Source: Vicinamibacterales bacterium (lineage in GTDB: Bacteria; Acidobacteriota; Vicinamibacteria; Vicinamibacterales; JAMQPK01). From it: a stretch of DNA of 64,000 bases. The notes below the pieces were generated by a model. That model was not told the DNA's origin and searched no databases. It saw only the letters and a program-made list of their open reading frames with translations. Made by a program: the position numbers and the translations under genes. Positions 26,114 to 55,915 of this stretch are shown in pieces (positions within the stretch are counted from its first letter, which is position 1; each line of letters opens with the position of its first letter). The stretch spans positions 344,786-408,785 of the forward strand of contig CAVZIS010000006.1 of the NCBI GenBank assembly GCA_963775345.1, in the 5' to 3' direction.

Positions 26114-29100
26114 ATGCCTCGGTACAGCAAGTTGTTCGTAACGGCGCCCGGCGTGCTTCCGATGATTCTCGTCAGATTGTCGCTAGTGTTGTTGGGCCTG
26201 CTCGCAACGGTAACCGTCGCTGAAACGGGCCAAGGAGGAGATTCGGCAGTCCGGGGACGTGTTGTGGACGATCAACAAGCCGCTGTCCCAGGTGCGGCGA
26301 TTGTCGTCACCAATCAAGAGACTGGTGCCGTCAGGGAAACCGTCTCTGGAGGGGACGGCTCATATTTCGTGACGAGCCTTCCCCCGGCCCCATACCGCAT
26401 TACGGTTGAGCTCGCAGGCTTCAGGTCACTCACGCGGGACAACGTGGTCTTGCGGCTTGGAGAAACCTCGACTGTGGATCTCCAGCTCGCATTGAGTGGA
26501 ATTGCGGAGAGCGTGACGGTGACGGGAGAGGCAGCGCAGGTCGACCTCACGTCGTCGCAAGGGGGAGGGAGCATTGCGCCGGGAGAGCTGCAGGACTTAC
26601 CGTCGGCGAATCGGGGATATGTGTCGTTGGTGGCATTGCTGCCCGGGGTCCAGTACGTTGCTGATTCGGGTGGAGACCCCTCGGTCAACATCAACGGCCA
26701 GCATGATAGCCAAGTCACCTACGTGCTCGACGGCGGCAATAACAACGATGACTCACAAGGCGGCGCCGGCGGCGCTCAGACTCGTGTCAACATTGAATCG
26801 GTTCAAGAGTTTCAAGTCATCACCAACCAGTTCGACGCTGAACATGGCCGCTCAACCGGCGGAATCGTGAACGCGATCACCAAGAGCGGCACAAACAATT
26901 TCCGTGGGAGCGGCTTCGGCTTCTTCACGGATGCGAACTATACTGCCATGGATCCCTTTGTAAAGGGGTCCGATGGCAGGATCGCAAAGCCAGATTCGCG
27001 GAAATATCAGTGGGGAGGCACCTTTGGCGGCCCGATCGTAAGGGACAAGACTCATTTCTTCTTGAGTCTCGAGCGGGTTGAGCTCGACTTCGCGAAAACG
27101 TTTGTGTATCCGACGAGGCCCGGGCTGAGTCACTCGTCGGTCGAAGATATTACTTTCACGAACCTTCTGGGGCGCGTGGACCATCAGTTGAATCCCGACA
27201 ACACACTCTCGTTTCGGTGGGTGCAGGAGCCAGCGCCGAACCGCGGTCAGATGAACGGCAGGGTGACGGAGACGGCAAAAAATCACGAGATTGACAAGGA
27301 TATTGCTGCAAATGCGTCGTACAACGTGGTCCTCAGCAACACCCGTGTGAACAGCATGCGGGCCTCGTTTACACGAGAGGATATCAAGCGGGGACCCGAG
27401 ACTGACTCGTACTGGGAGAACCAATACAGCGGTCCAAGGGATGGAACGGCCTTGCAGAGCGAGCTGCCGATGCTTCGTTTCCTCAGTTTCGACGACCAGA
27501 ATACTCAGCAAGGACAAGACAAGATCTTGGACAATTACTCCTTCGACAATACGTTCAGTTGGTTCGTGCCTGGGAAACGAGGCGACCATGATCTGAAGTT
27601 CGGTGCGCAATATGTGCTTGGAACGCACGACTACGTAGAGGCTGGCAGTTCCAACGGGATTTTTACGTTTGCTGGCGACGCAGCGTTCAGCGCTGCCAAC
27701 CCGTCAACCTATCCCGAGCGTCTGACAATTCGTGTGCCGGGGGCGCAACTTTTCATCCCGTTCTCTCATGCCCTGGGCCTCTTCGCGCAGGACAAATGGC
27801 GTCTGACCCCAAAACTCACGATGAGTCTGGGACTCCGCTGGGACATCGACGTCATCCCAATCTCATCGGGGGATTTCAATCCTCTCTTTTCTGATCGGGA
27901 CGATTATCCAGTCGATAAGAACAACTTCCAGCCGCGCGTGGGATTTGCCTACAACCTCGACGGAAAGTCGGTCCTCCGTGGCGGAGCAGGGATTTTTCAC
28001 TCGAGAATGTGGTTCAATCACTTCCAAAACGCCATGACGCAAGGGGTATACACGAGTTCCTTCATCGCCAACTTCCCGGTCAGCGGGCCAGACCCCGGAC
28101 CGAGTCGGGGACAGTTCCCGACCGACCCACTGCTCGTCAATGGGCCTTTTGTGAATCGCGATCTGCTGCAAACGCTCGTTCCTTACCCCATCCGTAACTC
28201 CGCTGCCGTGGTCCTGGACAACCCTGACCGTATCAACCCCTCGACGCGTCAGGTTTCGCTCGGGTACGAACGCCAACTGCGATCAATGTTGTCGTTCGGG
28301 GCCGACTACGTACACAATTGGGGGAAAAATGAGGGCATCCAATACGATTTGAATCCGGCTGTGCGGGCAAGCATAGCCCGGACGGCACCGATCGTTCGCA
28401 CGGATTTGCTGGGGATTGCTAATCAATTGGGAATCTCACCATTTCTCAACTCGGTCAGGGTCGGCGAGTACATTGGTGAATCCCAGTACGATGGCCTTAA
28501 CCTCCAGTTGGAAAAGCGATTTGCGAATGCGTGGCAAGGGCGCGTATCGTACACGCTGGGTTATGTCCGCGGGAACACCGGTGGTGCGCCAATTCCCGTC
28601 AATAACTTCCAGGTGCTCGGCGAGCGGAATCTTGATCTGAACTATGGCCCGAACGATGCCGACCGCCGTCACATCCTCAGCATTAGTGGCCGATTTGAGG
28701 TGCCAGGGATTCAGGGCCTGAACATCAGCGGCGTGTTCCGAGCGATGACTGGGCGGCCGTTCACCATTCACGACAGTAATTTCGATCTCGATCGAAACGG
28801 CATTCTCTTTGACCCACTTCCGGCCGGGGAATATAGCGGCACGGGAGTCAATGCTTGGACGGTCGAAAACAAGGGCGGCCGCAACGGCGCGGTTGGGCAT
28901 GGCTACGCCAATCTTGATGCGCGCATCAGTTACCGTTTTCGTGTCGCAACGGAGAGAACTCTCGATGTGTTTGGTGAGATCTTCAACGTCACGAACGAAC
29001 CGAACTACGCCAACCCCACTGGCGACCGCCGCTCGCCGGACTTCCTGGTTCCAACCGACTTCGAAGGCGGCGGAGCGGTTCCACGGCAAGGACAGATTGG

Positions 29101-29119
29101 TATTCGGCTCGGCTTCTGA
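26114..29119 (+). CDS. TonB-dependent receptor with CarboxypepD_reg N-domain (intact; cassette type I, copy 1)
   Basis: AAGGAG lies upstream of ATG 26114. Then GRVVDDQQAAVPGAAIVVTNQETGAVRETVSGGDGSYFVTSLPPAPYRITVELAGF, a plug and a barrel ending QGQIGIRLGF. Confidence 0.92.
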   Translation: MPRYSKLFVTAPGVLPMILVRLSLVLLGLLATVTVAETGQGGDSAVRGRVVDDQQAAVPGAAIVVTNQETGAVRETVSGGDGSYFVTSLPPAPYRITVELAGFRSLTRDNVVLRLGETSTVDLQLALSGIAESVTVTGEAAQVDLTSSQGGGSIAPGELQDLPSANRGYVSLVALLPGVQYVADSGGDPSVNINGQHDSQVTYVLDGGNNNDDSQGGAGGAQTRVNIESVQEFQVITNQFDAEHGRSTGGIVNAITKSGTNNFRGSGFGFFTDANYTAMDPFVKGSDGRIAKPDSRKYQWGGTFGGPIVRDKTHFFLSLERVELDFAKTFVYPTRPGLSHSSVEDITFTNLLGRVDHQLNPDNTLSFRWVQEPAPNRGQMNGRVTETAKNHEIDKDIAANASYNVVLSNTRVNSMRASFTREDIKRGPETDSYWENQYSGPRDGTALQSELPMLRFLSFDDQNTQQGQDKILDNYSFDNTFSWFVPGKRGDHDLKFGAQYVLGTHDYVEAGSSNGIFTFAGDAAFSAANPSTYPERLTIRVPGAQLFIPFSHALGLFAQDKWRLTPKLTMSLGLRWDIDVIPISSGDFNPLFSDRDDYPVDKNNFQPRVGFAYNLDGKSVLRGGAGIFHSRMWFNHFQNAMTQGVYTSSFIANFPVSGPDPGPSRGQFPTDPLLVNGPFVNRDLLQTLVPYPIRNSAAVVLDNPDRINPSTRQVSLGYERQLRSMLSFGADYVHNWGKNEGIQYDLNPAVRASIARTAPIVRTDLLGIANQLGISPFLNSVRVGEYIGESQYDGLNLQLEKRFANAWQGRVSYTLGYVRGNTGGAPIPVNNFQVLGERNLDLNYGPNDADRRHILSISGRFEVPGIQGLNISGVFRAMTGRPFTIHDSNFDLDRNGILFDPLPAGEYSGTGVNAWTVENKGGRNGAVGHGYANLDARISYRFRVATERTLDVFGEIFNVTNEPNYANPTGDRRSPDFLVPTDFEGGGAVPRQGQIGIRLGF

Positions 29120-29144: not shown

Positions 29145-30300
29145 ATGAGATTGCGACAGTTCACGCGTGCGCTCATGCTCGTTGCGCTGGGGACGTTCAC
29201 AGTTCTGAGCGTCCATGCCCGAGCCATCGACCCCTATCTGCTGGTGATGGGCAACAAGCTCAAGCCCAACAAGGCGACCCACCAGGAGAAGCTCTACATC
29301 TCGAACGAGCAGTCCAACACGCTGACGGTCGTGGATGTCGCGACCAACAAGGTCATCAACACGATCGTGATCGGAGAAACTCCGCACGGCCTTGCTGCCG
29401 CACCATCGGGGGAGCTTCTGTATGCCGGGAGCGAGGGAGATGGCTCGGTCAGAGTCATCGACACGATCACCGACAAGGTCGTGAAGACGTATCCTTTCTT
29501 CGGCTACGAGCCCAACGAGTTCGACATCTCGGAAGACGGACGGTATCTCGTCGTCCCCTCTGTACATGGGCTACTACCAGATATTCGACACCCAGAAGGA
29601 AGAAATCGTGGAGTACGTTCACACCAAGGGGGTGCCGCACAACACGATCGTCGCGGAGGGCAACGCGTATCTGTTTCCGACATTCACAAACGAAGGGCAT
29701 TTGAAACGGCAAGCAGGGCTGCCGACTACCCAGCCGCGTGAGATCACCATCGTGTCATTGAAAACCCTCAAAGTCGTCGGGGCCATCCCGATTCCAGCTG
29801 CGTCGCGGCCGCCCACCATCAGTCCCGACGGCAAGCGCCTCTACGTGCAAACTGGAGGTCCTACCGTTTACGGCAACCTGATGGGGTTCCTCGTCATCGA
29901 CATTCCGTCGAGGAAGGTGATCTCGCAGGCTGAGCACATGCTGACCCCCGAGGAAAAGGCGGGGCCGGGACGGTCGCACGGGATAACGGTCGCGGCTGGC
30001 GGCCGGGAAGTCTGGTCTGCGGATGTGAACCACAAGGCGACGTTCGTATTCGACGTCACCGTGCTTCCACCCAAGCAGATCGCGCGAATTCCGATGGATG
30101 GGCAACCTTACTGGGCGACATCGTCATTGGACGGCAATATCGTGTACGTCGCGGCTTCTCCGGATCACTTCGTCGTTGCGTACGATGCCGCGACGAAAAA
30201 GCAGATTGCACGGTTTGATCTTCCCAAAATGGGACCGAAGCGGATGCTTGCCGTGAACGTGCCGCGCAAAGCGTCGACGACGACCACGACGTCGCGATGA
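29145..30300 (+). pseudogene. YVTN/YncE-like 7-bladed beta-propeller, secreted (copy A; single frameshift)
   Basis: GGAGG, then ATG 29145 and a signal peptide MRLRQFTRALMLVALGTFTVLSVHA. YVTN-type repeats follow (LYISNEQSNTLTVVDVATNKVINTI..PHGLA). The frame breaks at about 29553, where one extra t is present relative to copy B (ccctcTgtacatggg); the protein continues as SYMGYYQIFDTQKEE... to 30300. Confidence 0.75.
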
Positions 30301-30348: not shown

Positions 30349-30879
30349 ATGATTCGAAGGACGTTTCTGGGGTATGGGCTCATGCTCCTCGGTCGGAGCC
30401 GGCGGGTGTGGGCCCAGGCCGCCAGCGAGTCGGTGCGCTACAGCCCGCTGGCCTCGTCAGTCCGAATTCCACTCAGTGACTTGACTGCTCCACTGAGCCC
30501 TGTACCGTTCACGGCCGAAGCCGTTCTCCCGCCCGCGGCGTCTGTGCCCGGTCAGCGTGTGCGGTTGAGCGGGATGCTCTTCCGCAAGTCGACCGGCGAT
30601 GACACCGCGGAGCGGTTCACCGCCCTCTGCACGATCTGCCCTCATGAATCCTGCCTGGTCAAGTTCGTTGATGACCCGACAATGGCGTCTGAGCTGAGCG
30701 AGGGCGCCACCTCGAGTCCGGTCTTTTCCTGTGGGTGCCATCACAGCGCCTTCCATGGCGTGGACGGGAACAAGATCAACGGTCCGACGCACCGCGGCTT
30801 GTACCGCTTTCGAGTGACCGATGTCAGTGAAGGAGCCGTCGTGATCGGCGAAGTGGAAGAGGCTTTGCTCCTCGCATGA
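30349..30879 (+). CDS. Tat-exported Rieske [2Fe-2S]-type protein (copy A, intact)
   Basis: Twin-arginine leader MIRRTFLGYGLMLLG...VWAQA. Rieske box I C97-P-H-E-S-C102 and box II C128-G-C-H-H-S-A-F. 176 aa. Confidence 0.8.
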   Translation: MIRRTFLGYGLMLLGRSRRVWAQAASESVRYSPLASSVRIPLSDLTAPLSPVPFTAEAVLPPAASVPGQRVRLSGMLFRKSTGDDTAERFTALCTICPHESCLVKFVDDPTMASELSEGATSSPVFSCGCHHSAFHGVDGNKINGPTHRGLYRFRVTDVSEGAVVIGEVEEALLLA

Positions 30880-38800: not shown

Positions 38801-40283
38801 TGGATCCGCGCTTGGACGCATCGCCTGAATCTGACTCGGCGGCATTTCCTTCGGCCGGGCCGGCGTGATCGGCGCTGCTGCGCTGGCGGAGCTGCTCCAG
38901 AGCCGATCTGCTGGCGCAGACCCCGCCCAGAGCGCGACCGGCGGGCTGCCGGAGTCTGCCGCACTTCGCGCCGAAAGCCAAGCGGGTGATTTATCTGTTC
39001 CAGGGGGCGGGCCGTCGCAGATCGATCTGTTTGATTACAAGCCGCAGCTCGACGAAACGGCAGGGCACCGATCTGCCCGATTCGATCCGCGACGGGCAGC
39101 GCTTGACCGGCATGACCGCGGGCCAGACGAGCTTTCCCGGTGGCGCCGCTCGATTTTTCAGTTCGCGCAACACGGGCAATCGGGCGCCTGGGTCAGCGAA
39201 CTGATGCCGCACACCGCCAAGATGGTGGACGACTTGTGCTTCATCAAGTCGATGCATACCGAGCAGATCAATCACGATCCGGCGGTGACATTCGCGCAGA
39301 CGGGCTTTCAGCTCGCGGGCCGGCCGAGCCTGGGAGCGTGGGTGACTTACGGGCTGGGGACGATGAACCAGGACCTGCCGGCCTTTGTCGTGATGATTAC
39401 CGGGCAGCGGCCAATCGCTTGGCGGAGCGGCAGTGGGGCACCGGGTTTCATTCCGAGCCGGTATCAGGGGATCAAGCTGCGGTCGGTGGGCGATCCGGTG
39501 CTGTACATCTCGGACCCGGCGGGCTTCGAGCAAATCGCAACGGGCGCGCTTCATCGAGGATCTGGCGAAACTGAACCAGCTCGAATTCGAGGCGGTGAAC
39601 AATCCCGAGATCAGCACTCGAATCGCGCAGTATGAAATGGCGTTCCGGATGCAGACGTCGGTGCCCGAGTTGACCGATCTGTCGAAGGAACCGGAGCACA
39701 CCTTCGAGCTGTACGGTCCGGATTCGCGAAAGCCCGGGACGTTCGCGGCGAATTGTCTGATGGCCCGGCGGCTCGCCGAGCGCGGCGTGCGCTTTATTCA
39801 GCTGTATCATCGCGCGTGGGACCATCACAGCAACCTGCCGAAGGACATCCGGACGGCGTCGCCAGCAGATCGATCAGCCGAGCGCCGGCGCTGATCCAGG
39901 ATTTGAAGGAACGGGGCATGCTGGACGAGACGCTGGTGATCTGGGGCGGGAGAATTCGGGCGCACGGTGTACTCGCAGGGCAAACTGACCGCCGACGATT
40001 ATGGCCGCGACCATCACCCGCGTGCTTCACGATCTGGATGGCAGGCGGCGGCATCAAGCCCGGGATCACGATCGGCGCCACCGACGACTACGGCTACAAC
40101 ATCGCGCAAGATCCCGTGCACATTCATGATTTGAATGCCACGATCCTGCGGTGCCTGGGGATCGATCACACGCGCCTGACCTACAAGTATCAAGGGCGGC
40201 ATTTCCGCCTCACGGACGTCGAAGGGCATGTGGTTCAGAAAGCGTTGACTTTTGATGCCGCCGCCGGCCCTGCGCTAAGGTGA
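38801..40283 (+). pseudogene. DUF1501 (sulfatase-like) protein, frameshifted partner of the PSCyt/PSD1 gene
   Basis: Fragments RRHFLR (Tat-like), [69 protein letters not shown] and [22 protein letters not shown] occur in the right order but in different frames. Confidence 0.85.
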
Positions 40284-43639: not shown

Positions 43640-44234
43640 CGAGCGCCAGAGTTTTCCAGACCGAGTTTCGTATACGCTCGGATATGCTCGCGGCAACACT
43701 GGCGGTGAGCCGGCTCCAGTCAACAACTTCCAGATGCTGGCAGAGAGGAATCTGGATCTGAACTAGGGCCGAAACGATGCCGATCGCCGTCATATGTTGA
43801 GCGTAAACGGCCGGTTCGAAGTGCCAAGATACCGGCTTCAACATCAGCGGGGTGTTTCGCGCGATGACGGGTCAGCCGTTCACCATCCACGACACCAACT
43901 TCGATGTGAATCGGAACGGGATTCTCTTCGACCCGCTCCCGGCCGGCACTTATAGTGGGACGGGGAAGGGGCGATGACGGTGGAGAACGAGGGGGGACGC
44001 AATGGTGCGACGGGACCTGGTTATCGCCAGTTTGATCTGCGCGCCAGCTACCGCATGCGGCTCGGGTCGGTGAGAACGCTGGATCTTTTCGCCGAGATAT
44101 TCAACGTGACCGACGAGCCGAACTTTGCCAATCCGACCGGCGATCGTCGCTCGCCGGAGTTCTTGAATCCCACGGCTCTGTTAGGCGGCGGGGTTCCGCG
44201 GCAAGGGCAGTTTGGTGTGCGATTGGGTTTCTAA
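43640..44234 (+). pseudogene. 3' relic (last about 200 codons) of a type I cassette TBDR
   Basis: RVSYTLGYARGNTGGEPAPVNNFQMLAERNLDLN, then TAG where the 26114 gene has TAT (aac tat ggc). Frameshifted pieces follow, ending ...TLDLFAEIFNVTDEPNFANPTGDRRSPEFL...VPRQGQFGVRLGF*. There is no 5' part of the gene. Confidence 0.8.
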
Positions 44235-44280: not shown

Positions 44281-45438
44281 ATGAGACTGAGACAGTTCAC
44301 GATTGTGCTCATGCTCGTTGTGCTGGCGACGTTCACGTTCTGACGGTCCGTGCCCGAGCCATCGACCCCTATCTGCTGGTGATGGGCAACAAACTAGCCC
44401 CGAACAAGGCGACCCACCAGGAGAAGCTCTACATCTCGAACGAGCGGTCCAACACGTTGACGGTCGTGGATGTCGCGACCAACAAAGTCATCAACACGAT
44501 TGATAGGTGCGAGGGAAGCACTCCGCATGGCCTTGCTGCCCCACCATCAGGAGAGCTTCTGTACGCTGGGAGCGAGGGAGATGGCTCGGTGAGGGTCATC
44601 GACACCATCACCGACAAGGTCATCAAGACGTATCCTTTCTTCGGCTATGAGCCCAACGAGTTCGACATCTCGGAAGACGGCGGTATCTCGTCGTCCCCTC
44701 GTACATGGGCTACTACCAGATATTCGATACCCAGAAGGAAGAGATCGTTGAATACGTTCACACCAAGGGGGTGCCGCACAACACGATCGTCGCAGAGGGC
44801 AACGCGTATCTGTTTCCGACATTCACAAACGAAGGGCATTTGAAGCGGCAAGCAGGGTTGCCGACCACGCAGCCGCGTGAGATCACCATCGTGTCATTGA
44901 AAACCCTCAAAGTCGTCGGGGCCATTCCGATTCCAGCTGCGTCGCGGCCGCCCACCATCAGTCCCGACGGCAAGCGGCTCTACGTGCAAACGGGAGGTCC
45001 GACCGTGTACGGGAACCTGATGGGGTTCCTCGTCATCGACATTCCGTCGAGGAAGGTGATCTCGCAGGCCGAGCACATGCTGACCCCCGAGGAAAAAGCA
45101 GGGCCAGGACGGTCGCACGGGATAACGGTCGCGGCTGGCGGCCGAGAAGTCTGGTCGGCGGATGTGAACCACAAGGCGACGTTCGTGTTCGACGTCACCG
45201 TGCTTCCACCCAAGCAAATCGCGAGAATTCCGATGGATGGGCAGCCTTACTGGGCCACCATCTCACTGGACGGCAATACCGTGTACGTCGCGGCTTCTCC
45301 GGATCATTCGTCATCGCGTACGATGCCGCGACGAAAAAGCAGAATGCACGGTTTGATCTTCCCAAAATGGGACCGAAGCGGATGCTTGCCGTGAACGTGC
45401 CGCGCAAAGCGTCGACGACGACCACGACGTCGCGATGA
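44281..45438 (+). pseudogene. YVTN/YncE-like beta-propeller (copy B, type I), at least 3 frameshifts
   Basis: Near-identical to copy A, with 2 aa differences over the roughly 200 residues I compared by eye. There is a 1-nt deletion in the signal peptide (about 44335, giving a premature TGA), a 1-nt deletion at about 44684 (gacggCggtat versus gacggAcggtat in A) and a frameshift at about 45305. Confidence 0.85.
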
Positions 45439-45485: not shown

Positions 45486-46018
45486 ATGATTCGAAGGACG
45501 TTTCTGGGGTATGGGCTCATGCTCCTCGGTCGGAGCCGGCGGGTGTGGGCCCAGGCTCGCCAGCGAGTCGGTGCGCTACAGCCCGCTGGCCTCGTCGGTC
45601 CGGATTCCACTCAGTGACTTGACTGCTCCACTGGAGCCCTGTACCGTTCACGGCCGAAGCCGTCTTGCCGCCCGCGGCGCTGTGCCCGGTCAGCGTGTGC
45701 GGTTGAGCGGGATGCTCTTCCGCAAGTCGACCGGCGATGACAGCCGCGGAGCGGTTCAGCGCCCTCTGCACGATCTGCCCTCATGAATCCTGCCTGGTCA
45801 AGTTCGTTGATGACCCGACAACGGCGTCTGAGCTGAGCGAGGGCGCCACCTCGGGTCCGGTCTTTTCCTGTGGGTGCCATCGCAGCGCCTTCCATGGCGT
45901 GGACGGGACCAAGATCAACGGTCCGACGCACCGCGGCTTGTACCGCTTTCGAGTGACCGATGTCAGTGAAGGAGCCGTCGTGATCGGCGAAGTGGAAGAG
46001 GCTTTGCTCCTCGCATGA
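45486..46018 (+). pseudogene. Tat-Rieske protein (copy B), frameshifted
   Basis: It starts identically to copy A (MIRRTFLGYGLMLLGRSRRVWAQ) and retains CPHESC...CGCHRSAF, but is read in at least 3 frames (breaks at about 45555, about 45640 and about 45740). Confidence 0.8.
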
Positions 46019-47139
46019 TAGTCAGGATAGCGGTACTCGTTCTCTCCACGCTAATCATTCCGGCGTCTGTCTCGCACCCGGTCTTCGAGTTGGCCGGGGC
46101 GTGGCGTGCTGCCCAGCAGCGAGCGGACGCACCGCCAACGTTTCAAGTCGATCGCGCCTGGCTGAAATTACCCGGGAAATGGAAGCTGGGAGACGCCTCC
46201 AGCGTCGCAGTCGATGCACGGGATCATGTCTGGGTGCTTCACCGCCCACGAACCCTTCCCCCCGACCAGATCGCGAGCGCCGCGCCGCCCGTGCTGGAGT
46301 TCGATGCGGCCGGTAACTTCATTCAAGGCTGGGGTGGACCGGGGAATGGATACCAGTGGCCGGAGAGGGAGCACGGCCTCTATGTGGACTACAGGGACCA
46401 CGTGTGGATCGGAGGCAACAATTGCCCCGGCAGCAAGCTTCCTGGACTCAAGCCCGTCGCAGATGACCAGCTCGTCAAGTTCACCACAACTGGCAAATTT
46501 GTGATGCAGGTCGGCCGGAGTAATGCGAGCGGTGGTAACAGCGATACACGCAATCTACACAGACCCGCGGACGTATCTGTGTATCGGAAGACGAACGAGG
46601 TGTTCGTGGCAGATGGGTACGGCAACCACCGCGTGATTGTTTTCGATGCAGAGACCGGCGTATTCAAACGGGCCTGGGGCGCGTTTGGCAACAAACCGAT
46701 AGATGACGACCACTGTCCCGCGGCCCCCGCTCCTCCAATCACCAAAGATGGGAGCCCTGGTCCTCAACAGTTCGCTATTGTCCACGCGGTTCGCGTGTCG
46801 AATGATGGGCTGGTCTACGTCGCCGATCGAGAGAACAGACGGGTCCAGGTGTTCAGCATCGAGGGCAAGTTCATCGATCAGGTCTTCGTGGGCCGCCAGC
46901 CAGAGACCGGAGGGGCGTCCGTCGTCGCCTTCTCGTCGGACCCGCAGCAGCAGTTTCTCTACGTCGGAGGCGGTTCGCTGATAACAGTTCTCGATCGCAA
47001 GACACTCGCGCCCAGAAGCGCCTTTGGCGGCAAAGGAGTCTTGGTTGGAATCCACCACATGGCGGTCGACACCAAAGGCAACGTTTTCGTTGCGGCGCTC
47101 GGCCAAGGCATCCAAAAACTTGTTCCTGACGGCCGTTGA
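46015..47139 (+). CDS. PAL-like (peptidyl-alpha-hydroxyglycine lyase-like) NHL-repeat beta-propeller, secreted (copy B, intact)
   Basis: 374 aa with an N-terminal hydrophobic anchor/signal. NHL-type blades: SSVAVDARDHVWVLHR, HGLYVDYRDHVWIGG, PADVSVYRKTNEVFVADGYGNHRVIVFDAETG, HAVRVSNDGLVYVADRENRRVQVFS, HHMAVDTKGNVFVAA. The start overlaps the Rieske-B stop. Confidence 0.75.
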   Translation: MIVRIAVLVLSTLIIPASVSHPVFELAGAWRAAQQRADAPPTFQVDRAWLKLPGKWKLGDASSVAVDARDHVWVLHRPRTLPPDQIASAAPPVLEFDAAGNFIQGWGGPGNGYQWPEREHGLYVDYRDHVWIGGNNCPGSKLPGLKPVADDQLVKFTTTGKFVMQVGRSNASGGNSDTRNLHRPADVSVYRKTNEVFVADGYGNHRVIVFDAETGVFKRAWGAFGNKPIDDDHCPAAPAPPITKDGSPGPQQFAIVHAVRVSNDGLVYVADRENRRVQVFSIEGKFIDQVFVGRQPETGGASVVAFSSDPQQQFLYVGGGSLITVLDRKTLAPRSAFGGKGVLVGIHHMAVDTKGNVFVAALGQGIQKLVPDGR

Positions 47140-47297: not shown

Positions 47298-50226
47298 ATG
47301 TCCCGATCCGCATGGTTACCGGCGGCGCTCGGCGTGGTCCTGGCAACGGCGATTGTGGGCGCGCAAGGTGGCGGATCCGCCCTTCAAGGCCGCGTGACCG
47401 ACGAGCAGCAGGCCGTCCTTCCCGGTGTCACCATCACCGTCACCCATCAGGAGAGCGGAACGTTTCGCGAAACGGTCTCGGGTCAGGACGGTGCGTACTT
47501 CGTGCCGGGCCTTGTTCCCGGGCGCTATCGTGTCGCGGCCGATCTCGCGGGATTCAAGAAATTCCTGCGCGAAGACGTGAATCTGCTTCTGGGAAACACG
47601 CAGACGCTCGATCTTCGGCTCGAGGTCGGCGGCGTGACCGAGACGGTCACGGTGACCGAGGAGGCGCCGGCCGTCGACCTGACCTCGGCGCGCGTCGGCG
47701 GAAACGTGGCATCGCGTGAGCTGCTCGATCTGCCATCTCCCACCCGCAACTTCATTTCGTTCGTGGCCATGGTGCCGGGCGTGCAGCTGAATCCGAGCGC
47801 TGAAGGATCCGATTCGATCAGCGTCAACGGTCAGAGCAGCAATCAGGTCACCTTCGTGCTGGACGGCGGCAACAACACCGACGACAACTCTGCCTCGCCA
47901 TCGGGTGCGCAGGCGCGAACGCCGCTCGAGACAGTCGAAGAATTCCAGGTCCAGACCAATCAGTTCGACGTCGAGTTCGGGCGAACGACCGGCGGCGTCG
48001 TCAATGCCATCACCAAGCGGGGGACCAACGCGTTCAGAGGCTCGGCCTTCGGGTACCTGACGAACTCGGCGATGACAGCGCCGACAATCCTGGCCGAGCT
48101 GGCGGGCGAAGGCGAATCGGATACCGACAAGCATCAGTATGGCGTCACCTTTGGCGGTCCCATCATCCGCGACAAGCTGCATTTCTTCGGGAGCTTCGAG
48201 CGGTATGTCGTCGGCACGGGTCTCACCAATGTGTTTCCGACCAGACCGGAGCTCAACTGGAGCGCGAAGGAGGGGTTGAACGGCAGAAATTATATGGTTC
48301 GCGTCGACCATCAGATCAACGCGAACAACACATATACGGCGCGATATCTGACCGAACGCCAGCCCAATCGCGACCTGTTGACCGGCGAGCGCGCGACGCT
48401 CAGCACTGGGAACTACGAGCTGGACACCGACCAGACTGCAAGCGTGGCATATAACCGCGTGATCGGCACGAGGGCGCTGAATACGGTCCGGGCGTCAATC
48501 GAGACCGAAGACATCCAGCGCGGGGCCGAGCCAGGCACTTTTCTTGAAACGAACCGGAAAGATCTGGAGGCTCCCGTCCTCCGGTTCCTGAGCTTTGACG
48601 AGCAGGGGCACACCAACGGCCAGCATCGCAACGCCCAGGCGCCAGGCATTGATGACACGTTCAGTTTGTTCGTGCCGGGCAAAGCGGGCGATCACGATCT
48701 GAAATTCGGATTCCAGTATTTGTACGCCAAGAACGAGCTGTCCGAGCAAGGCAGCATGAACGGCGTGTTCTCGTTCCCCGGCGATCGCCCGTTCAATGCC
48801 GCTGATCCTTCGACCTACCCCGAACGTCTGTCGATTCGCGTGCCGGTTCCCGCCGGCGTGACGTCGTTCACCCATTCGTTCGGGTATTACGCTCAGGACA
48901 AGTGGCGGATCACACCGAAGCTGACGCTGAACTTTGGACTGCGCTACGACGTCGACATCTTTCCGTTCCTTCAGCCGCTGAATCCTCTTCTCGAATCCGG
49001 CGAATATCCGGTAGACATGAACAATTTCCAGCCGCGCGCCGGCTTTGCCTACAACATCGATGGACGATCGGTGATTCGCGGCGGCGTCGGCCGCTATTAC
49101 GAGAAATTCTTCATCGGTCAGGGCTCGCCGCTTCAGGAAACGGGCGTGTTATGGCAGATCCCTGATCGTCAACTTCCCCGTGAGTCAGCCCGACCCCGGT
49201 CCGAGCAACGGACGGCTTCCGACCGATCCGATGCTCGTGAATGGCCCCGTCGTGAATCGCGCACTGCTCAATCAGCTCTATCCCGCGGACGTTCTGACGC
49301 GGAACACGGGGACCGTGCAGATGGATTCGCCCGATCGGCAGATGCCGAGCTCGACGCAGTTCTCGACCGGCTACGAGCGCCAGCTCGGAGCGACGATGTC
49401 CTTCGGGCGTCGACTACATCCACAACGAAGGCCGTAACTGGATCGGTTACGACTTGAATCCCGCTCTGCGGGTCAATACCACCCGAACGGGAGCGGTGAA
49501 CCGCACCGATCTGTTGGGGCTTGCAAACACGCTCGGGATTTCTCCTTTCGCGAACTCGGTCAATCTTCGGTTCGACTACACTGGCAAAACCAGGTACGAT
49601 GGCCTCAACCTTCAGTTGGAGCGGCGGTTCGCGGGGTTCTGGAGCGCCCGGGCCGGTTACACGCTCGGCTACGCCCGCGGCAACAACAGCGGCGCCGCAT
49701 TGGCCAATAACAATTTTCAGCTGCTGGCCGAGAAGAATCTCGACCTGAATGAAGGGCCGCTGGATACCGATCGGCGCCACAATCTTATTCTGAACACCCG
49801 CGTGGAAGTGCCGCAGCTGCAAGGGCTTGACCGTCAGCGCGCTGTTCAGGTACATGAGCGGCAGACCGTTCAGCATCATCGACACGAACGTCGACCCGGA
49901 CAGGAACGGAATCCTGTTCGATCCGCTGCCGGCCGGCGAATACAGCGGCGTCGGTGAGACAGCGATCACGGTGAACAACAAGGGAGGTCGTAACGGCGCC
50001 TATGGACCCGATTACGCGCAACTGGATGCCCGGGTGGGGTATCGTCTTCGCATGCCCGGCTCGCGAACGCTCGACGTGTTCCTCGAGTGCTTCAATGTGA
50101 CCAACAGATCGAATTTCACGAATCCGTCGGGAGACAGAAGGCTGCCGAACCTTCCTCGTCAACAACGGGTTGGTCGCGGGCGGGTTCCCGCGACAACTGC
50201 AGGTCGGGACCCGGCTCGGCTTTTAG
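47298..50226 (+). pseudogene. TonB-dependent receptor (cassette type II, copy 5), 3' third frameshifted
   Basis: AGGAGG lies upstream of ATG 47298. The gene is intact for about 615 codons (QGRVTDEQQAVLPGVTITVTHQESGTFRETV...). Frame changes then occur at about 49150, about 49410, about 49830 and about 50150. The true end FPRQLQVGTRLGF* is at 50226. Confidence 0.85.
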
Positions 50227-50235
50227 GAGGAATCT

Positions 50236-51346
50236 ATGAGATTGCGATATGTCGATGCTTGTGCTCGGGCTAGTAGTGACTCGCGACCTTCGCGTCGACC
50301 GCCCAGAATGCCGCGGTTCACGAGAAGCTCTATGTCTCGCTCCAAGGCTTCGAGAAGGAGAGCCTGGCGGTCGTCGACACGGCGACCAACAAGGTCATCA
50401 AGACCCTGTCGGCCGGGGCGCACCCGCACGGCATGGCCTCGCCCCAGTCCCAGTCAATCCTCTATGTCGCAAGTGAGACCGAAGGCACCATAACGACGGT
50501 CGACACCACCCGGGACCAGGTCATCAAGACGCTGGATGTCGGCTTTGGCGTGGAACCTCAGGAGGGCGATATCACCCCGGATGGCCGCTTCCTGTATTGG
50601 CCCTCGTACGCCGGCTACTACCAGGTCTTCGATACCCAGAAGGAAGAGATCATCGAATACATCCACACCCTGGGCATCGGGCATAACACCGTGATGTCGC
50701 CCGATGGGCGATTTGTCTATCTGCTTCCCATCGCCGGCGGCGCCGGGTCACTGGCGGCGGCCTTCGCTGGGTCTGCCGCGGACGCAGCCGAAGGAAGTGA
50801 CCGTCGTCGATGCGAAAACCCATAAGGCCGTGGGGACGATTCCTCTCGGCTCGGGACCAAGGCCCGGGACCATCAGCCCCGACGGCAAGCGGATCTACAT
50901 GAACGTGGACAACCTGCTGGGATTCCTCGTCATCGATACCGCCGCGCGAAAGGTGATCTCGAAGGCGACCTACACGCTGACGCCGGATGAACAGGCCGTG
51001 CAGAGCCGGTCCCACGGGATCGCGGTTGCGAATGATGGCAAGGAAGTGTGGTCGACTGACGTCGTCCACAGCCTGGTCTTCGCATTTGACGTCACGGTGA
51101 CTCCGCCGAAGCAGATCGCACGGTTCCCGGTGGGGCGGCAGCCGTATTGGATTGTCACCATCGAAGGACACCAAGACCGTTTACGTGGCCAATCCGAGCA
51201 GTGACGAGGTGATCATCTTTGATGTGGCCACCAAGAAGGAAAAGGCGCGCATCCAATTTCCACCGAAGTCGCATCCCACGCGCATGCTGATGGTGGCCGC
51301 TCCGCGCACAGCGCGACCACAACTCTCGATGACGACAGTACACTGA
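50236..51346 (+). pseudogene. YVTN/YncE-like beta-propeller (copy C, type II), multiple frameshifts
   Basis: RBS taGGAGG, then ATG 50236. Ordered fragments: HEKLYVS..ESLAVVDTATNKVIKTL; ILYVASETEGTITTVDTTRDQVIKTL...YAGYYQVFDTQKEEIIEYIH; GHWRRPSLGLPRTQPKEVTVVDAKTHKAVGTIP...; TVYVANPSSDEVIIFDVATKKEKARI. Confidence 0.8.
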
Positions 51347-51372: not shown

Positions 51373-51914
51373 ATGCTTCGGCGGGTGTTCGTTCGTCTAC
51401 GGGCTCATGCTCGTCGGCTTTGGCCGACGGGTATGGGCCCAGTTAGTCGAACCGGTCAGTCAAATACTTTCCGCTGACACATCCGATTCGCATCCCGCTC
51501 GCCGAGGTGAAGACGCCGTGGCAACCCGTGCCGTTTACTGCCGAAGCGATGGCGCCTGCCACCTCGACCACTGCAAGACGGCGAGTGCTCATCAGCGGGG
51601 TGTTGTTTCGACGATCAGAGTCGGACGACAACGCAACAAAAAACCTGAGCGCGCTTTGCCTCACCTGTCCGCATGAGCAATGTAAGGTCGATCTCGTCAC
51701 CGATCCCGCCCAACTGGCTCAGATGATCGGCCGGCCGGCGACGCATCCGCTCTTCGAATGCGCCTGTCATCAGAGCGTCTTCGATGCGTTGCAGGATGGT
51801 GAGCGGATATCGGGCGAAACGCCGCGCGGCTTGTACCGCTTTCGAATCACCAATGTCAGCGACAGTGCGGTCGAGATCGGTGAAATCGAAGAAATAGCGC
51901 TATTTGAGGTGTGA
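51373..51914 (+). pseudogene. Tat-Rieske protein (copy C); the Rieske domain is intact but the leader is separated by two frameshifts
   Basis: The 135-aa ORF 51507-51914 keeps CPHEQC...CACHQSVF. The twin-arginine start MLRRVF (ATG 51373) and the h-region YGLMLVGFGRRVWAQ lie in two other frames. Confidence 0.65.
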
Positions 51915-52128: not shown

Positions 52129-53478
52129 TTGTTCCCGGCGGTGTTCTTGTTCATCATCGCTCTCGCGATAACCCTGCCTTCCGGTGTTGCCGTATCCGCC
52201 GCAGTGCCCGAGACGCCCACTTTCAACAAGGACGTTCTGTCGATTCTTCAAAAGAACTGTCAGGAGTGTCATCGGCCCGGCGCGATTGCCCCGATGTCCT
52301 TCATGACCTACCAGGAGACCCGCCCATACGCCCGGGCGATCTCCAAGGCGGTCGTCAGCAGGACGATGCCGCCGTGGTTTGCAGATCCGACGGTTGGTCA
52401 TTTTGAGAACACCAAGCTGCTGAGCGATGAACAGATCGCTACGTTGGTCGCGTGGGCCGACAAGGGCGCGGTTGAGGGCGATGCGAAGGACAAGCCTGCG
52501 CCTGTCGATTTTGCCGACGGATGGACGATTGGCAAGCCCGACATCATCGTGCAGATGCCGAAGACCATCGAGCTTCCGGCGACCGGCATCATCGATCAGT
52601 CAAATGTGCTCGTCTACGCGCATTTCGAAAAGGACATGTGGGTGAAAGCCGCCCAGGTGCTGCCCGGCAACGCGAAGGTCGTGCATCACATGAAGGCGTG
52701 GATCCGTCCGCCCGGTTCCGCGTGGATGGCGGATGCTCCCGAAGGGGTTCTCTACAATCCACCGCGTGGCGCGGGAGGACCGGCGCCGCAACCGGTCGCA
52801 CTGTCGGCGACGGGATATAAACCCGCTCAGGACATTCTTGCGAAGTACAACCCCGGTGTTGCGGGCCAGGAGTTCACAACGGGAAACGCCGCCAAATTCA
52901 TCGCCGCCGGCTCCGACATCGTCTTCGAGGCGCACTATACGACGACGGGGAAACCCGAAACAGATAGATCGTCGGTCGGCATCGTGCTGGCCGATGGACC
53001 ACCGACGCAACGGCATCTCACGACGACGGCGATCAGCGAGAGGAATTTCGAGATTCCGGCGGGCGATCCGCACTATGAAATCAGAGGCGAAGTCACCGTC
53101 GAGGAGCCCGCGAAGCTCGTCTGGATCCAGCCGCACATGCACTATCGCGGCACGTACTACGAGTTGAAGGTCGTGTACCCGGATGGTAAGGAAACGATGA
53201 TCGTGCGCGTTCCGAACTACCGGTTCGATTGGCAATTGGGTTACGAGCTGGCCGAGCCGGTGGATTTGCCGAAGGGCTCGAAGCTGATGACCGTTTCGTA
53301 CTACGACAATTCATCAGCCAACAGATTCAATCCCGATCCCGCCAGGAACGTGCGGTACGGTGCCCAGAGCTGGGATGAGATGAATGTCAGCTTCATCGGT
53401 ATTTTGATCGACGCGAAAGGAGACCCCGGGAGAGCGTTCCGCCGACGAGGGGCGCCGGTTCGCCAGGAGGTGGAGTAG
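52129..53478 (+). CDS. Cytochrome-c-domain / PHM-like (copper type II ascorbate-dependent monooxygenase-like) fusion protein, secreted
   Basis: Heme-c motif C44-Q-E-C-H48 in an N-domain (ILQKNCQECHRPG..MPPWFADP). PHM-type ligand pattern H186-H187, H269, H336-x-H338, M418. The ORF opens with TTG 52129. A better-placed ATG 52116 (AAGGAG at 52103-52108) is in another frame, which implies either a 1-nt indel at 52119-52129 or the TTG start. Confidence 0.75.
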   Translation: MFPAVFLFIIALAITLPSGVAVSAAVPETPTFNKDVLSILQKNCQECHRPGAIAPMSFMTYQETRPYARAISKAVVSRTMPPWFADPTVGHFENTKLLSDEQIATLVAWADKGAVEGDAKDKPAPVDFADGWTIGKPDIIVQMPKTIELPATGIIDQSNVLVYAHFEKDMWVKAAQVLPGNAKVVHHMKAWIRPPGSAWMADAPEGVLYNPPRGAGGPAPQPVALSATGYKPAQDILAKYNPGVAGQEFTTGNAAKFIAAGSDIVFEAHYTTTGKPETDRSSVGIVLADGPPTQRHLTTTAISERNFEIPAGDPHYEIRGEVTVEEPAKLVWIQPHMHYRGTYYELKVVYPDGKETMIVRVPNYRFDWQLGYELAEPVDLPKGSKLMTVSYYDNSSANRFNPDPARNVRYGAQSWDEMNVSFIGILIDAKGDPGRAFRRRGAPVRQEVE

Positions 53479-53676: not shown

Positions 53677-54633
53677 GTGAACCGTATGCTAGGATGCCGC
53701 CCACTTATGAGAACCATGAGAGTTGCGGTGCTTGCGGCGCTGTTCATGACCACGCTTACCGCGCGCCAGGCGATTCCGCAGGCGACGGGTCCGAACGTCG
53801 CACGCGATTTGCGTGGGGCGGTCGATATCCACGTTCATTCCGACCCCGACAAGGTTCCGCGCTCCCTGGACGGGCTCGAAGCGGCCCGGCTGGCCAAAGA
53901 GAAAGGCATGCGCGCGATCGTACTGAAGAGCCACTACGATCCGACAGCGGGTCTGGCTCTGCTGGCCCGCAAGCAGGCGCCCGGCATCGAGGTGTTCGGC
54001 GGAATCGATCTGAATCTTCCCGTCGGCGGCATGAACGTTCATGCGGTCGAGAACATGGTCCAGACCAACGGCCACTGGGGGCGGGTCGTGTGGATGTCTA
54101 CGTTCGATTCCGAGAATCAGGCTCGCGCGGGCAAGACGCCGCGTCCGTTCGTGCGCGTCTCGGCAAACGGCGAGCTGCTGCCGGAGACGAAGGCAGTCAT
54201 CGCGGCGATCGCCAAGCACAACCTGGTCATGGCGAGCGGTCACGTCTCGGCTGCAGAGACGCTGATGATGTTCGAAGAAGCCCGCAAGCTCGGCGTCCGC
54301 GGCATGGTCGCCACTCACGGAATGTCCCCGCCGACCTCGCTCACGGTGGAACAAGCCAGGAAGGCGACAGCGCTCGGCGCATTCATCGAGTTCTGTGGCG
54401 GAACGCTCGAAACGCCCACCGGGCAAGCCAAGGTCGATCGCTTCGCGGATGACATCCGTCAGGTTGGCGTCGATCACGCGATTATCTCTTCGGATCTCGG
54501 TCAGGGAGGCAATCCGCTGCCTGCCGACGGGCTCGCGACATTCATCGACGCGCTGCGAAAGAAAGGCTTTACCGATCAGGAGCTCGATCGGATCGCGAAG
54601 CAGAACCCTGCCAGGCTTCTCGGTCTTCCATAG
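53677..54633 (+). CDS. Secreted TIM-barrel metal-dependent hydrolase-like protein (amidohydrolase superfamily / DUF6282-like)
   Basis: Signal peptide MRVAVLAALFMTTLTA. Then DIHVHSDPD (HxH metal motif), later SGHVS and ATHG His motifs, and SSDLGQ (Asp). The family name is from memory. Confidence 0.5.
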   Translation: MNRMLGCRPLMRTMRVAVLAALFMTTLTARQAIPQATGPNVARDLRGAVDIHVHSDPDKVPRSLDGLEAARLAKEKGMRAIVLKSHYDPTAGLALLARKQAPGIEVFGGIDLNLPVGGMNVHAVENMVQTNGHWGRVVWMSTFDSENQARAGKTPRPFVRVSANGELLPETKAVIAAIAKHNLVMASGHVSAAETLMMFEEARKLGVRGMVATHGMSPPTSLTVEQARKATALGAFIEFCGGTLETPTGQAKVDRFADDIRQVGVDHAIISSDLGQGGNPLPADGLATFIDALRKKGFTDQELDRIAKQNPARLLGLP

Positions 54634-54672: not shown

Positions 54673-54686
54673 GAGGAGAGTTGCTG

Positions 54687-55915
54687 ATGAGGCGAAGGAT
54701 ATTCCTGCTTTGCGTTGTCGTCGCAGTGTCGGCTGGCATGAGCGCGGCGCAGCATGCTGTCGATCGCCTTGTCCTGTATGCAGCGCTCGGTTCAGATCTG
54801 GCGACCTATGATGTAGACCTCGCTCATGCGGCGCTGGCCAGGCGATCGAGCGTCACGCTGCCGTTTGCGGTCCAGTATGCGTGGCCGCATCCGTCGAAGA
54901 AATTCCTGTATGTCGCCTGGAGCAACGGCATGCAGGGCGATCGTCACGGCATCACGGTCTATCGAGTTGATGCCGCTGGAGCCCTCGCGCCCCATGGACC
55001 ATCGATCGAGATTCGCCATCGGCCCGTGCATCTGACTCTGGACGCCAACGCGACGCATGTGCTCGTCGCCTACAACAACCCGAGCGGCCTGAGCGTGCAC
55101 AGCCTCAACGCCGACGGCACGCTCGGCAGCGAAGTCAAACAACCCGGATCGATCGATGGCGGGATCTACGCGCATCAGATCCGCGTGCATCCATCGAACA
55201 AGATGGTCGTCATGGTCACGCGCGGGAACGGCCCGACGCCAGCCGCCCGGAGGATCCGGGCGCGCTCAAGATTTTCGGCTACAACGATGGAATTCTCGAA
55301 AGCCGTCAGTCCATCGCCCCCAACGGCGGATTCGGATATCAGCCCCGGCACGTCGACTTTCACCCGTCGCAGCCGTGGATGTATCTCAACCTCGAACGGC
55401 AGAATCAGCTGCAGGTTTATCGCACCGTCCGCGGGGAATCCGTAGAGCCCGCTGCGCTCTTTACAAGGGACACGCTCGACAATCAGGCTGCCAGCAAGCC
55501 CGCTCAAATGACCGGCGCCATTCACGTGCATCCAAACGGGCGGTTCGTCTATGTCAGCAATCGCGCCAGCGGCACGATCGACGTCGGGGCAAAGCCAATC
55601 TGGGAGGGCGGTGAAAACACCATCGGTGTCTACGCCGTGGATCAGAAAACGGGCGAGCCGACGAGAATCCAGAACATCGACAGCGGCGGGATGCATGCGC
55701 GAACGTTCGCGCTCGATGATGGCGGCCGCATTCTCGTTGCTGCGAATCAGAACGCCGTGACCAGGCGTGACGGTGCGACCGAAACCAGAGTGCCTGCGTC
55801 GCTCGCGGCGTTCCGTATCGCGGCGGACGGCAAGCTGTCGTTTGTGCGGAAGTACGATGTGGAAACGGGGCAGGGGCGGAGTCTCATGTGGGTCGGACTC
55901 CTGACGCTGAACTAG
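54687..55915 (+). CDS. Lactonase-family 7-bladed beta-propeller (6-phosphogluconolactonase-like), secreted; one frameshift
   Basis: GAGGAG, then ATG 54687 (MRRRIFLLCVVVAVSAGMSAAQ). The N-half (to about 55245) and the C-half (EDPGALKIFGYNDGILESRQSIAPNGGFGYQPRHVDFHPSQPWMYLNLER...HVHPNGRFVYVSNR) are in different frames. The break is near gccgcccgg at 55240-55250. Confidence 0.75.

Follow-up and report, generated by a model that had tools for sequence, protein, structure and literature searches.

A six-bladed NHL propeller of a Vicinamibacterales bacterium that carries the residue set of peptidyl-alpha-hydroxyglycine lyase: a member of a divergent bacterial branch

A stretch of 64,000 nucleotides from a Vicinamibacterales bacterium (contig CAVZIS010000006.1, positions 344,786 to 408,785 of the forward strand; hereafter the window) was analysed around a gene that encodes a protein with NHL repeats. 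The window contains three paralogous cassettes on the + strand, called A, B and C, each with genes for a receptor, a propeller and a Rieske protein, followed by a variable gene. In cassette B this last gene (46015-47139) is the one of interest, and its product is called the NHL protein. The open reading frame runs from an ATG at 46015 to a stop codon at 47137-47139 and specifies 374 amino acids. It is a genuine gene, and an identical protein is already on record in sequence databases. No support was found for the minus-strand open reading frames that overlap it; chance reading frames are common in the window because of its G+C content of 61%.

The Pfam NHL model (PF01436) matched the protein in two stretches, with 48.9 bits against a cut-off of 20 (E 4.6e-13). 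An AlphaFold2 model, made from an alignment of 34 sequences (A1), had a mean predicted local distance difference test score (pLDDT) of 84.3, a predicted template modelling score of 0.84 and 27 strands, a count consistent with six four-stranded blades, the first of which would begin at about residue 40. Compared by Foldseek to NHL domains of the PDB, the model gave template modelling (TM) scores of 0.7-0.8. An earlier note on this DNA, made by reading the sequence, had counted five or six NHL-type blades, and the model fits six. Ahead of them, residues 1-36 are hydrophobic, predicted to be disordered (pLDDT <50) and variable across the family alignment. The N-terminus, MIVRIAVLVLSTLIIPASVS, is without a twin-arginine motif and may be a Sec signal. 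The protein is most likely exported to the periplasm.

Three independent comparisons (hhalign, MAFFT and Foldseek) agreed that, of all solved structures, that of rat peptidyl-alpha-hydroxyglycine lyase (PAL) is the closest. The sequence used here for the rat PAL core is 100% identical to residues 7-329 of 3fvz_A and to PAM 498-820 of 5wm0_A, and the residue numbering is therefore secure. Alignment of A1 to this sequence by hhalign extended over 281 columns, from blade 1 through blade 6, with a probability of 99.3% and an E value of 3.6e-20. A family profile searched against the PDB with hmmsearch retrieved rat PAL at E 6e-19, and in the PDB sequence search the match to 3fvz was one long alignment that spans blades 3-4 and sets DGYGNHR opposite DGYCNSR. 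By Foldseek, 3fvz ranked first among PDB structures (E 1.7e-17, TM 0.71), just above non-enzymatic NHL domains. A homologue search made with a rat PAL fragment returned exon-sized fragments only, and no full-length PAL.

For residue conservation, 82 relatives from 82 loci, with identities down to 28%, were aligned with rat PAL by MAFFT; the residue mapping was the same as that from hhalign. Six residues of rat PAL, R533, H585, Y654, H690, R706 and H786, have identical counterparts in the NHL protein (R77, H120, Y202, H257, R272 and H347, respectively; Table 1). In the rat enzyme the three His are reportedly the Zn ligands and the Tyr is said to act as the base, next to the active-site Arg residues. 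The earlier note had proposed an alignment with animal PAL cores and an inspection of the Zn-binding His and the catalytic Tyr and Arg. The former proved full-length, as described above, and the latter are all present and conserved in 80 to 82 of the 82 relatives. Its suggestion that one blade resembles a PAL motif of the form DGYxNxR(I/V) was likewise borne out, as the blade-3 segment FVADGYGNHRVIVFD pairs column for column with FVSDGYCNSRIVQFS of rat PAL. Two positions that bind calcium through the backbone in rat PAL, V520 and L587, correspond to V64 and L122. Relative to rat PAL, some 20 residues are inserted between blades 3 and 4 of the family, and this insertion carries a family-specific, nearly invariant pair of cysteines, C137 and C234, both present in 58 of the 82 relatives. 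These probably form a disulfide in the exported protein, which would fit an extracytoplasmic location.

Homologues of the NHL protein are abundant. At least 7,989 of 8,000 scored candidates, counted as clusters at 90% identity, matched at E<=1e-5, and many are about 375 amino acids long and 58-82% identical. When 1.84 billion representatives at 50% identity were searched, 4,739 proteins matched at E<=1e-10, 568 of them at E<=1e-30, and a genome scan gave at least 590 relatives. Among the loci listed, those at 41-69% identity belong to Terriglobia, Vicinamibacterales, Bryobacteraceae and Alpha-, Beta- and Gammaproteobacteria. Those at 27-34% belong to Planctomycetia, Dehalococcoidia, Methylomirabilota and Bradyrhizobium, together with one metagenome-assembled genome (MAG) of Bryobacterales and one betaproteobacterial MAG. 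Scored against rat PAL, the window protein's family reached 27-61 bits, versus 80-134 bits for most of these distant relatives (Planctomycetia, Bryobacterales, Methylomirabilota, Bradyrhizobium). The window protein therefore lies in a divergent branch that is joined to PAL via more PAL-like bacterial proteins. The family is a large, divergent and unannotated bacterial branch of the PAL superfamily. Its listed members carry source names such as "DNA-binding beta-propeller fold protein YncE" (JGI), "NHL repeat" or "hypothetical protein", and NCBIfam holds no model for the family. The sole NCBIfam match of the NHL protein was ScyF (NF035926), an identity that was rejected at 41.1 bits against a cut-off of 350, over residues 150-227 only.

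Clustering of the neighbourhoods of 85 NHL loci revealed no conserved operon. The gene stands mostly alone or beside one of the commonest neighbours, a DUF6152 protein (18 loci), Bug-family binding proteins (16) or pyrroloquinoline quinone (PQQ) dehydrogenases (14). The DUF6152 neighbour is about 345 amino acids long, with the DUF6152 domain at its N-terminus, and lies at a median distance of 130 bp; in one example (L035:2529-3596) the letters HHS directly follow a signal-like segment. It is a possible metal-binding partner of the family. Family proteins longer than typical include tandem NHL-NHL, SGL (gluconolactonase)-NHL, FAA_hydrolase-NHL and NHL-periplasmic-binding-protein fusions; representatives with domain fusions are P0390, P0392, P0399, P0417, P0433 and P0525.

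Table 1. Cassette genes of the window and landmarks within the NHL gene (all positions are those of the window).
Feature	Positions	Strand	Basis and remarks
NHL gene, cassette B (374-residue six-bladed propeller, most likely exported)	46015-47139	+	Open reading frame, Pfam, hhalign, AlphaFold2, Foldseek
Putative N-terminal hydrophobic export signal and low-confidence linker, residues 1 to ~37	46015-46125	+	Sequence, pLDDT
R77 codon (LHRP), at rat PAL R533, active-site Arg	46243-46245	+	hhalign, MAFFT; R in 80/82
H120 codon (REHG), at rat PAL H585, Zn ligand	46372-46374	+	hhalign, MAFFT; H in 82/82
Blade-3 motif, residues 197-211	46603-46647	+	Aligned with rat PAL
Y202 codon, at rat PAL Y654, catalytic base	46618-46620	+	hhalign, MAFFT; Y in 81/82
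H257 codon, at rat PAL H690, Zn ligand	46783-46785	+	hhalign, MAFFT; H in 82/82
R272 codon (ADRENRR), at rat PAL R706, active-site Arg	46828-46830	+	hhalign, MAFFT; R in 82/82
H347 and H348 codons	47053-47058	+	H347 at rat Zn ligand H786, H in 81/82; H348 at rat Ca ligand D787
Cassette A receptor, intact	26114-29119	+	Open reading frames, tblastn
Cassette A propeller, one frameshift	29145-30300	+	tblastn
Cassette A Tat-Rieske gene, intact	30349-30879	+	Open reading frame, tblastn
Cassette A NHL copy, broken	30876-~32000	+	tblastn, nucleotide comparison with copy B
Cassette B receptor, TonB-dependent, C-terminal remnant	43662-44234	+	Pfam OMP_b-brl_4, tblastn
Cassette B YncE / cytochrome-d1 / lactonase-like propeller, four separate pieces, at least 3 breaks	44281-45411	+	tblastn
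Cassette B Rieske [2Fe-2S] gene, split over frames	45486-46018	+	Pfam Rieske, tblastn with the intact L003 Rieske
Cassette C receptor, three open reading frames	47298-50273	+	Pfam, tblastn
Cassette C propeller	50280-51316	+	Pfam, tblastn
Cassette C Rieske gene	51395-51914	+	Pfam, tblastn
Cassette C PHM-like gene, slot after Rieske	52129-53478	+	Pfam, Foldseek

The arrangement of the cassettes was compared with that of a related locus (L003), in which the NHL protein is 82% identical and all cassette genes are intact. The Rieske proteins carry an RRTFL twin-arginine translocation (Tat) motif and the boxes CPHESC and CGCHHS. Their gene always follows the YncE / cytochrome-d1 / lactonase-like propeller, in the window (30349-30879), in the relative (L003:4157-4687) and on metagenomic contigs (L088-L092); the metagenome scan, made with a Rieske alignment, yielded 7 short contigs only. 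What comes after the metagenomic propeller-Rieske pair varies, being a PHM-like gene in L088 and an unrelated one in L090. The propeller and the Rieske gene thus form a conserved unit, and the next gene is a variable add-on. The earlier note had placed the NHL gene in the slot after the Rieske gene in type I cassettes and a PHM-like gene in that slot in the type II cassette (C), and this layout was found. The positional equivalence that it read into it holds as far as the slot goes and is approximate beyond that: the last 4 bp of the Rieske gene are also the first 4 bp of the NHL gene (ATGA; 46015-46018 in B) in cassette A, cassette B and L003, whereas the PHM-like gene starts about 215-280 bp past its Rieske gene, without overlap. 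The NHL-Rieske overlap inside a receptor-propeller-Rieske cassette was found only within this lineage. Downstream of cassette C lie DUF6282, lactonase and CMD genes. The DUF6282 protein (53677-54633, +; 205 bits) is encoded directly 3' of the PHM-like gene, and its C-terminus has a weak match to Peptidase_M19 (membrane dipeptidase; 16.7 bits, under the cut-off of 26); its gene may be part of cassette C.

Many of the cassette genes are split. The splits cluster at 29-56 kb and affect propellers A, B and C, Rieske genes B and C and receptor C, together with a DUF1501 gene (38865-40283) and a lactonase gene (54681-55915), while those of the first 29 kb are whole. No junction is a homopolymer. Of the pieces of the cassette B propeller, one (44681-45307) is 95% identical to the intact 390-residue propeller of L003, and the others 74-88%. 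Either a paralogous cluster is decaying here, or the repeats of a long-read MAG contain polishing errors. The NHL copy of cassette A is 95.3% identical at the nucleotide level to that of cassette B, from which it differs by 17 indel events versus 52 substitutions, with in-frame stops, so that a faulty assembly, and not a pseudogene, could account for it; such a ratio of indels to substitutions is unusually high for natural decay. The earlier note had called the cassette B gene the only intact copy. This is literally true, but the breaks in copy A could be artefactual, and since decay and polishing errors are indistinguishable here, we give the statement no biological weight.

The gene in the equivalent slot of cassette C, which the earlier note had described as PHM-like, was identified by its fold. 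Sequence searches gave little: Pfam Cu2_monoox_C matched at 21 bits, below the cut-off of 23, phmmer and hmmsearch against the PDB gave no match, and hhalign of the PHM-like family with the rat PHM core (a sequence 100% identical to the PDB chain) gave an E value of 0.36 over the C-terminal 55 columns only, in the SxDEM region. The family has at least 4,448 members, 65-88% identical, and invariant across it are C44-x-x-C47-H48, H186-H187, H269, H336-x-H338 and M418. This set reads as a haem-c motif followed by the HH..H..HxH..M pattern of two putative copper sites. Foldseek with the AlphaFold2 model (pLDDT 74.8) returned rat PHM or human DBH as all of its first 31 PDB matches, with E values of 1e-12 to 3e-10 and TM scores against PHM of 0.57-0.67; after these the match falls to 1e-6. 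Because of the invariant ligands and the fold matches, the product is taken, in agreement with the earlier description, to have the PHM/DBH fold; a CxxCH cytochrome c domain is fused at its N-terminus. The fusion suggests that electrons come from cytochrome c rather than from ascorbate.

On this evidence, the NHL protein is probably a periplasmic PAL-type, metal-dependent lyase that acts on carbinolamide compounds resembling alpha-hydroxyglycine. By analogy with PAL, a divalent metal held by the three His, presumably Zn, would bind the hydroxyl of the carbinolamide, Y202 would deprotonate this hydroxyl as a base, R272 would tune the Tyr and R77 would hold a neighbouring carboxylate. Cleavage of the N-C(alpha) bond would then give an amide and glyoxylate or another aldehyde. 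The substrate would probably be a compound of the N-acyl-alpha-hydroxyglycine type, either made in the periplasm or brought into it. Among bacterial PALs, enzymes with these same residues are known to be active, and their Zn-dependent cleavage of alpha-hydroxyglycine amides to amide and glyoxylate has been demonstrated (PMC10900485, PMC9155641); in the Exiguobacterium enzyme the residues are H95, H210 and H309, Y178 and R225 (PMC10900485, PMC9155641).

Several observations weigh against a PAL-type lyase. At position 348, which corresponds to the rat calcium ligand D787, none of the 82 relatives has D, the residue there being H, Q, G, L, E or A, and position 345, opposite the rat Met784 that lines the substrate site, is G, A, P, T or W, Met not being conserved. 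The N-terminal 130 residues gave no PAL match in a phmmer search of the PDB, so that blades 1-2 align at the profile level only. The grouping of the six residues into one putative three-dimensional metal site comes from the alignment to the solved structure, and the metal, chemistry and substrate proposed for this branch are those that homology would predict. Translational coupling to a Rieske gene is unexpected for a redox-neutral lyase. Finally, the operon may be non-functional in the source organism if the cassette frameshifts are real.

The earlier note took the shared slot as the strongest hint that the PAL-like and PHM-like proteins serve a common pathway. In such a two-step scheme, similar to that of PAM, the PHM-like enzyme of cassette C would take an imported substrate and hydroxylate it at the carbon beside an amide nitrogen, drawing electrons from its cytochrome c domain, the Rieske proteins or both, and the NHL lyase of cassette B would cleave the resulting carbinolamide. 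In the window, and likewise in L003, the two genes share a strand and are separated by about 5 kb, each in one of the tandem paralogous cassettes, and each product keeps its half of the expected features, namely the PAL catalytic set in the NHL family and the PHM fold and copper-ligand pattern in the neighbour. Co-location was examined by tblastn and profile hidden Markov models over 80 genome loci, up to 10 kb to each side. Outside the lineage of the window and L003, a PHM-like gene was found within 10 kb of the NHL gene at only 1 of the 80 loci (L040:19379-20806, - strand, on the Vicinamibacterales chromosome OZ253664.1), where it is 34% identical and stands about 8 kb away on the opposite strand. 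By our own estimate, from 20-kb windows in genomes of about 4-8 Mb, this is about what chance would give. The cassette Rieske gene was found at none of the 80 loci, and the cassette propeller only as a weak, ~28% identical match at one (L018). Conversely, five long PHM-like loci (L086, L087, L095-L097) contained no NHL or Rieske gene, and none of 10 longer-than-typical proteins picked from the 150 best NHL representatives was fused to a copper monooxygenase. A PHM-like partner that is fused, adjacent or consistently co-located was thus not seen among these loci, and a search of the open literature found no paper on bacterial PAL/PHM pairs. That the two genes fill one slot of paralogous cassettes suggests that they are interchangeable additions and not successive steps. 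They are not partners within one cassette, and the NHL family elsewhere keeps the other company described above. Carbinolamides, moreover, also break down without an enzyme (PMC10900485). The hint of the earlier note is therefore not sustained by gene neighbourhoods outside this lineage, and we regard the two-step scheme as unlikely.

Two further explanations concern the NHL protein itself. It might be a redox metalloenzyme, an oxygenase or oxidase of the imported substrate, with Fe or Cu at the His3/Tyr site and electrons fed by the coupled, Tat-exported Rieske protein. The conservation of the 4-bp overlap in cassettes A, B and L003 would fit this, as would the Tat motif and high-potential-type boxes of the Rieske protein, and rat PAL as prepared reportedly binds a little iron too, with a band for charge transfer from Tyr to Fe(III). 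However, none of the 80 other family loci has the Rieske link while the active-site residues are universal, so that a Rieske partner cannot be a requirement for the chemistry of the family. Even where nothing related lies downstream (L089-L092), the Rieske gene is consistently paired with its upstream propeller, and the two conserved Arg fit the PAL mechanism. We consider a redox function quite improbable. Even less credence is given to a non-catalytic propeller, binding a ligand or a protein like those of TRIM, Thin or the YncE type, or to a stranded gene with no current function in a decaying locus. In whole-sequence scores (phmmer and hmmsearch against the PDB), the NHL domains of TRIM and Thin do exceed PAL, and the JGI name of family members points to YncE. 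These high scores arise because one query blade matches the repeated blades of TRIM and Thin, not from a full-length alignment; PAL ranks higher by Foldseek, and a TRIM-like binding module was rejected as the primary reading. The six PAL-specific catalytic residues are, in addition, kept over 28-100% identity. Stranding could be read from the frameshifts in the upstream partners of cassette B, but the NHL reading frame itself is intact and close in sequence to its L003 orthologue, and the indel-rich pattern seen elsewhere could be due to assembly error.

A lyase of the PAL type thus remains the preferred interpretation, and it can be set against the systems already described. With rat PAL the NHL protein shares the six-bladed NHL propeller, as best structural match and by full-length profile alignment, the six identical residues, the blade motifs DGYxNxR and ADRENxR, and an extracytoplasmic or secretory location, which is predicted for the NHL protein. 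It differs by an identity of only about 21-27%, by the loss of the D787 and M784 equivalents, by the insertion between blades 3 and 4 with the Cys pair, and by being a stand-alone bacterial protein, not fused to PHM, whose gene is coupled in this lineage to a Rieske gene in a TonB-receptor cassette. Closer in organisation is the Exiguobacterium PAL (US patent 9,096,843; PMC10900485; PMC9155641), also a stand-alone bacterial six-bladed propeller with the Zn His triad, Tyr and Arg. In that enzyme calcium is bound by V43, I97 and D310 (PMC10900485), and D310, beside the third His, is kept there, whereas Asp never occurs at this place in the NHL family. Other bacterial PAL-like proteins, at 80-134 bits, are nearer to rat PAL than the NHL family is. 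Drosophila Thin, TRIM2/3/71 and Brat have the NHL repeat motif and the six-bladed fold in common with it, but they bind RNA or protein and have no His3/Tyr/Arg site. ScyF of scytonemin biosynthesis is likewise an exported bacterial NHL propeller, of whose family the NHL protein is not a member (41 bits against 350). Active bacterial PALs were thus already known; what is new here is a divergent, very abundant and unannotated branch that lacks the calcium site.

Combined with its neighbours, the locus evokes a broader picture, in which soil Acidobacteria would possess, in the periplasm, an equivalent of the animal peptide-amidating system that does without ascorbate. A substrate that ends in glycine or resembles an N-acylglycine would be imported by the TonB-dependent receptor and hydroxylated by the PHM-fold dicopper enzyme, fed by its fused cytochrome c and the Tat-exported Rieske protein, and the PAL-like protein would release the amide and glyoxylate. 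We hold this to be a rather unlikely, speculative scenario. If it were true, it would give a natural function to bacterial PAL and PHM homologues that have long been unexplained, and it would suggest that both PAM half-reactions arose in prokaryotes. Since PAL-like, PHM-like, uptake and electron-transfer genes are rarely found together, the locus is a reasonable starting point in the search for the natural substrate, even though the link between them is not general. Independently of that link, the family has kept the complete PAL catalytic set despite the missing calcium site, and its assignment to the PAL superfamily provides thousands of unannotated proteins of soil bacteria with a definite chemistry that can be put to the test.

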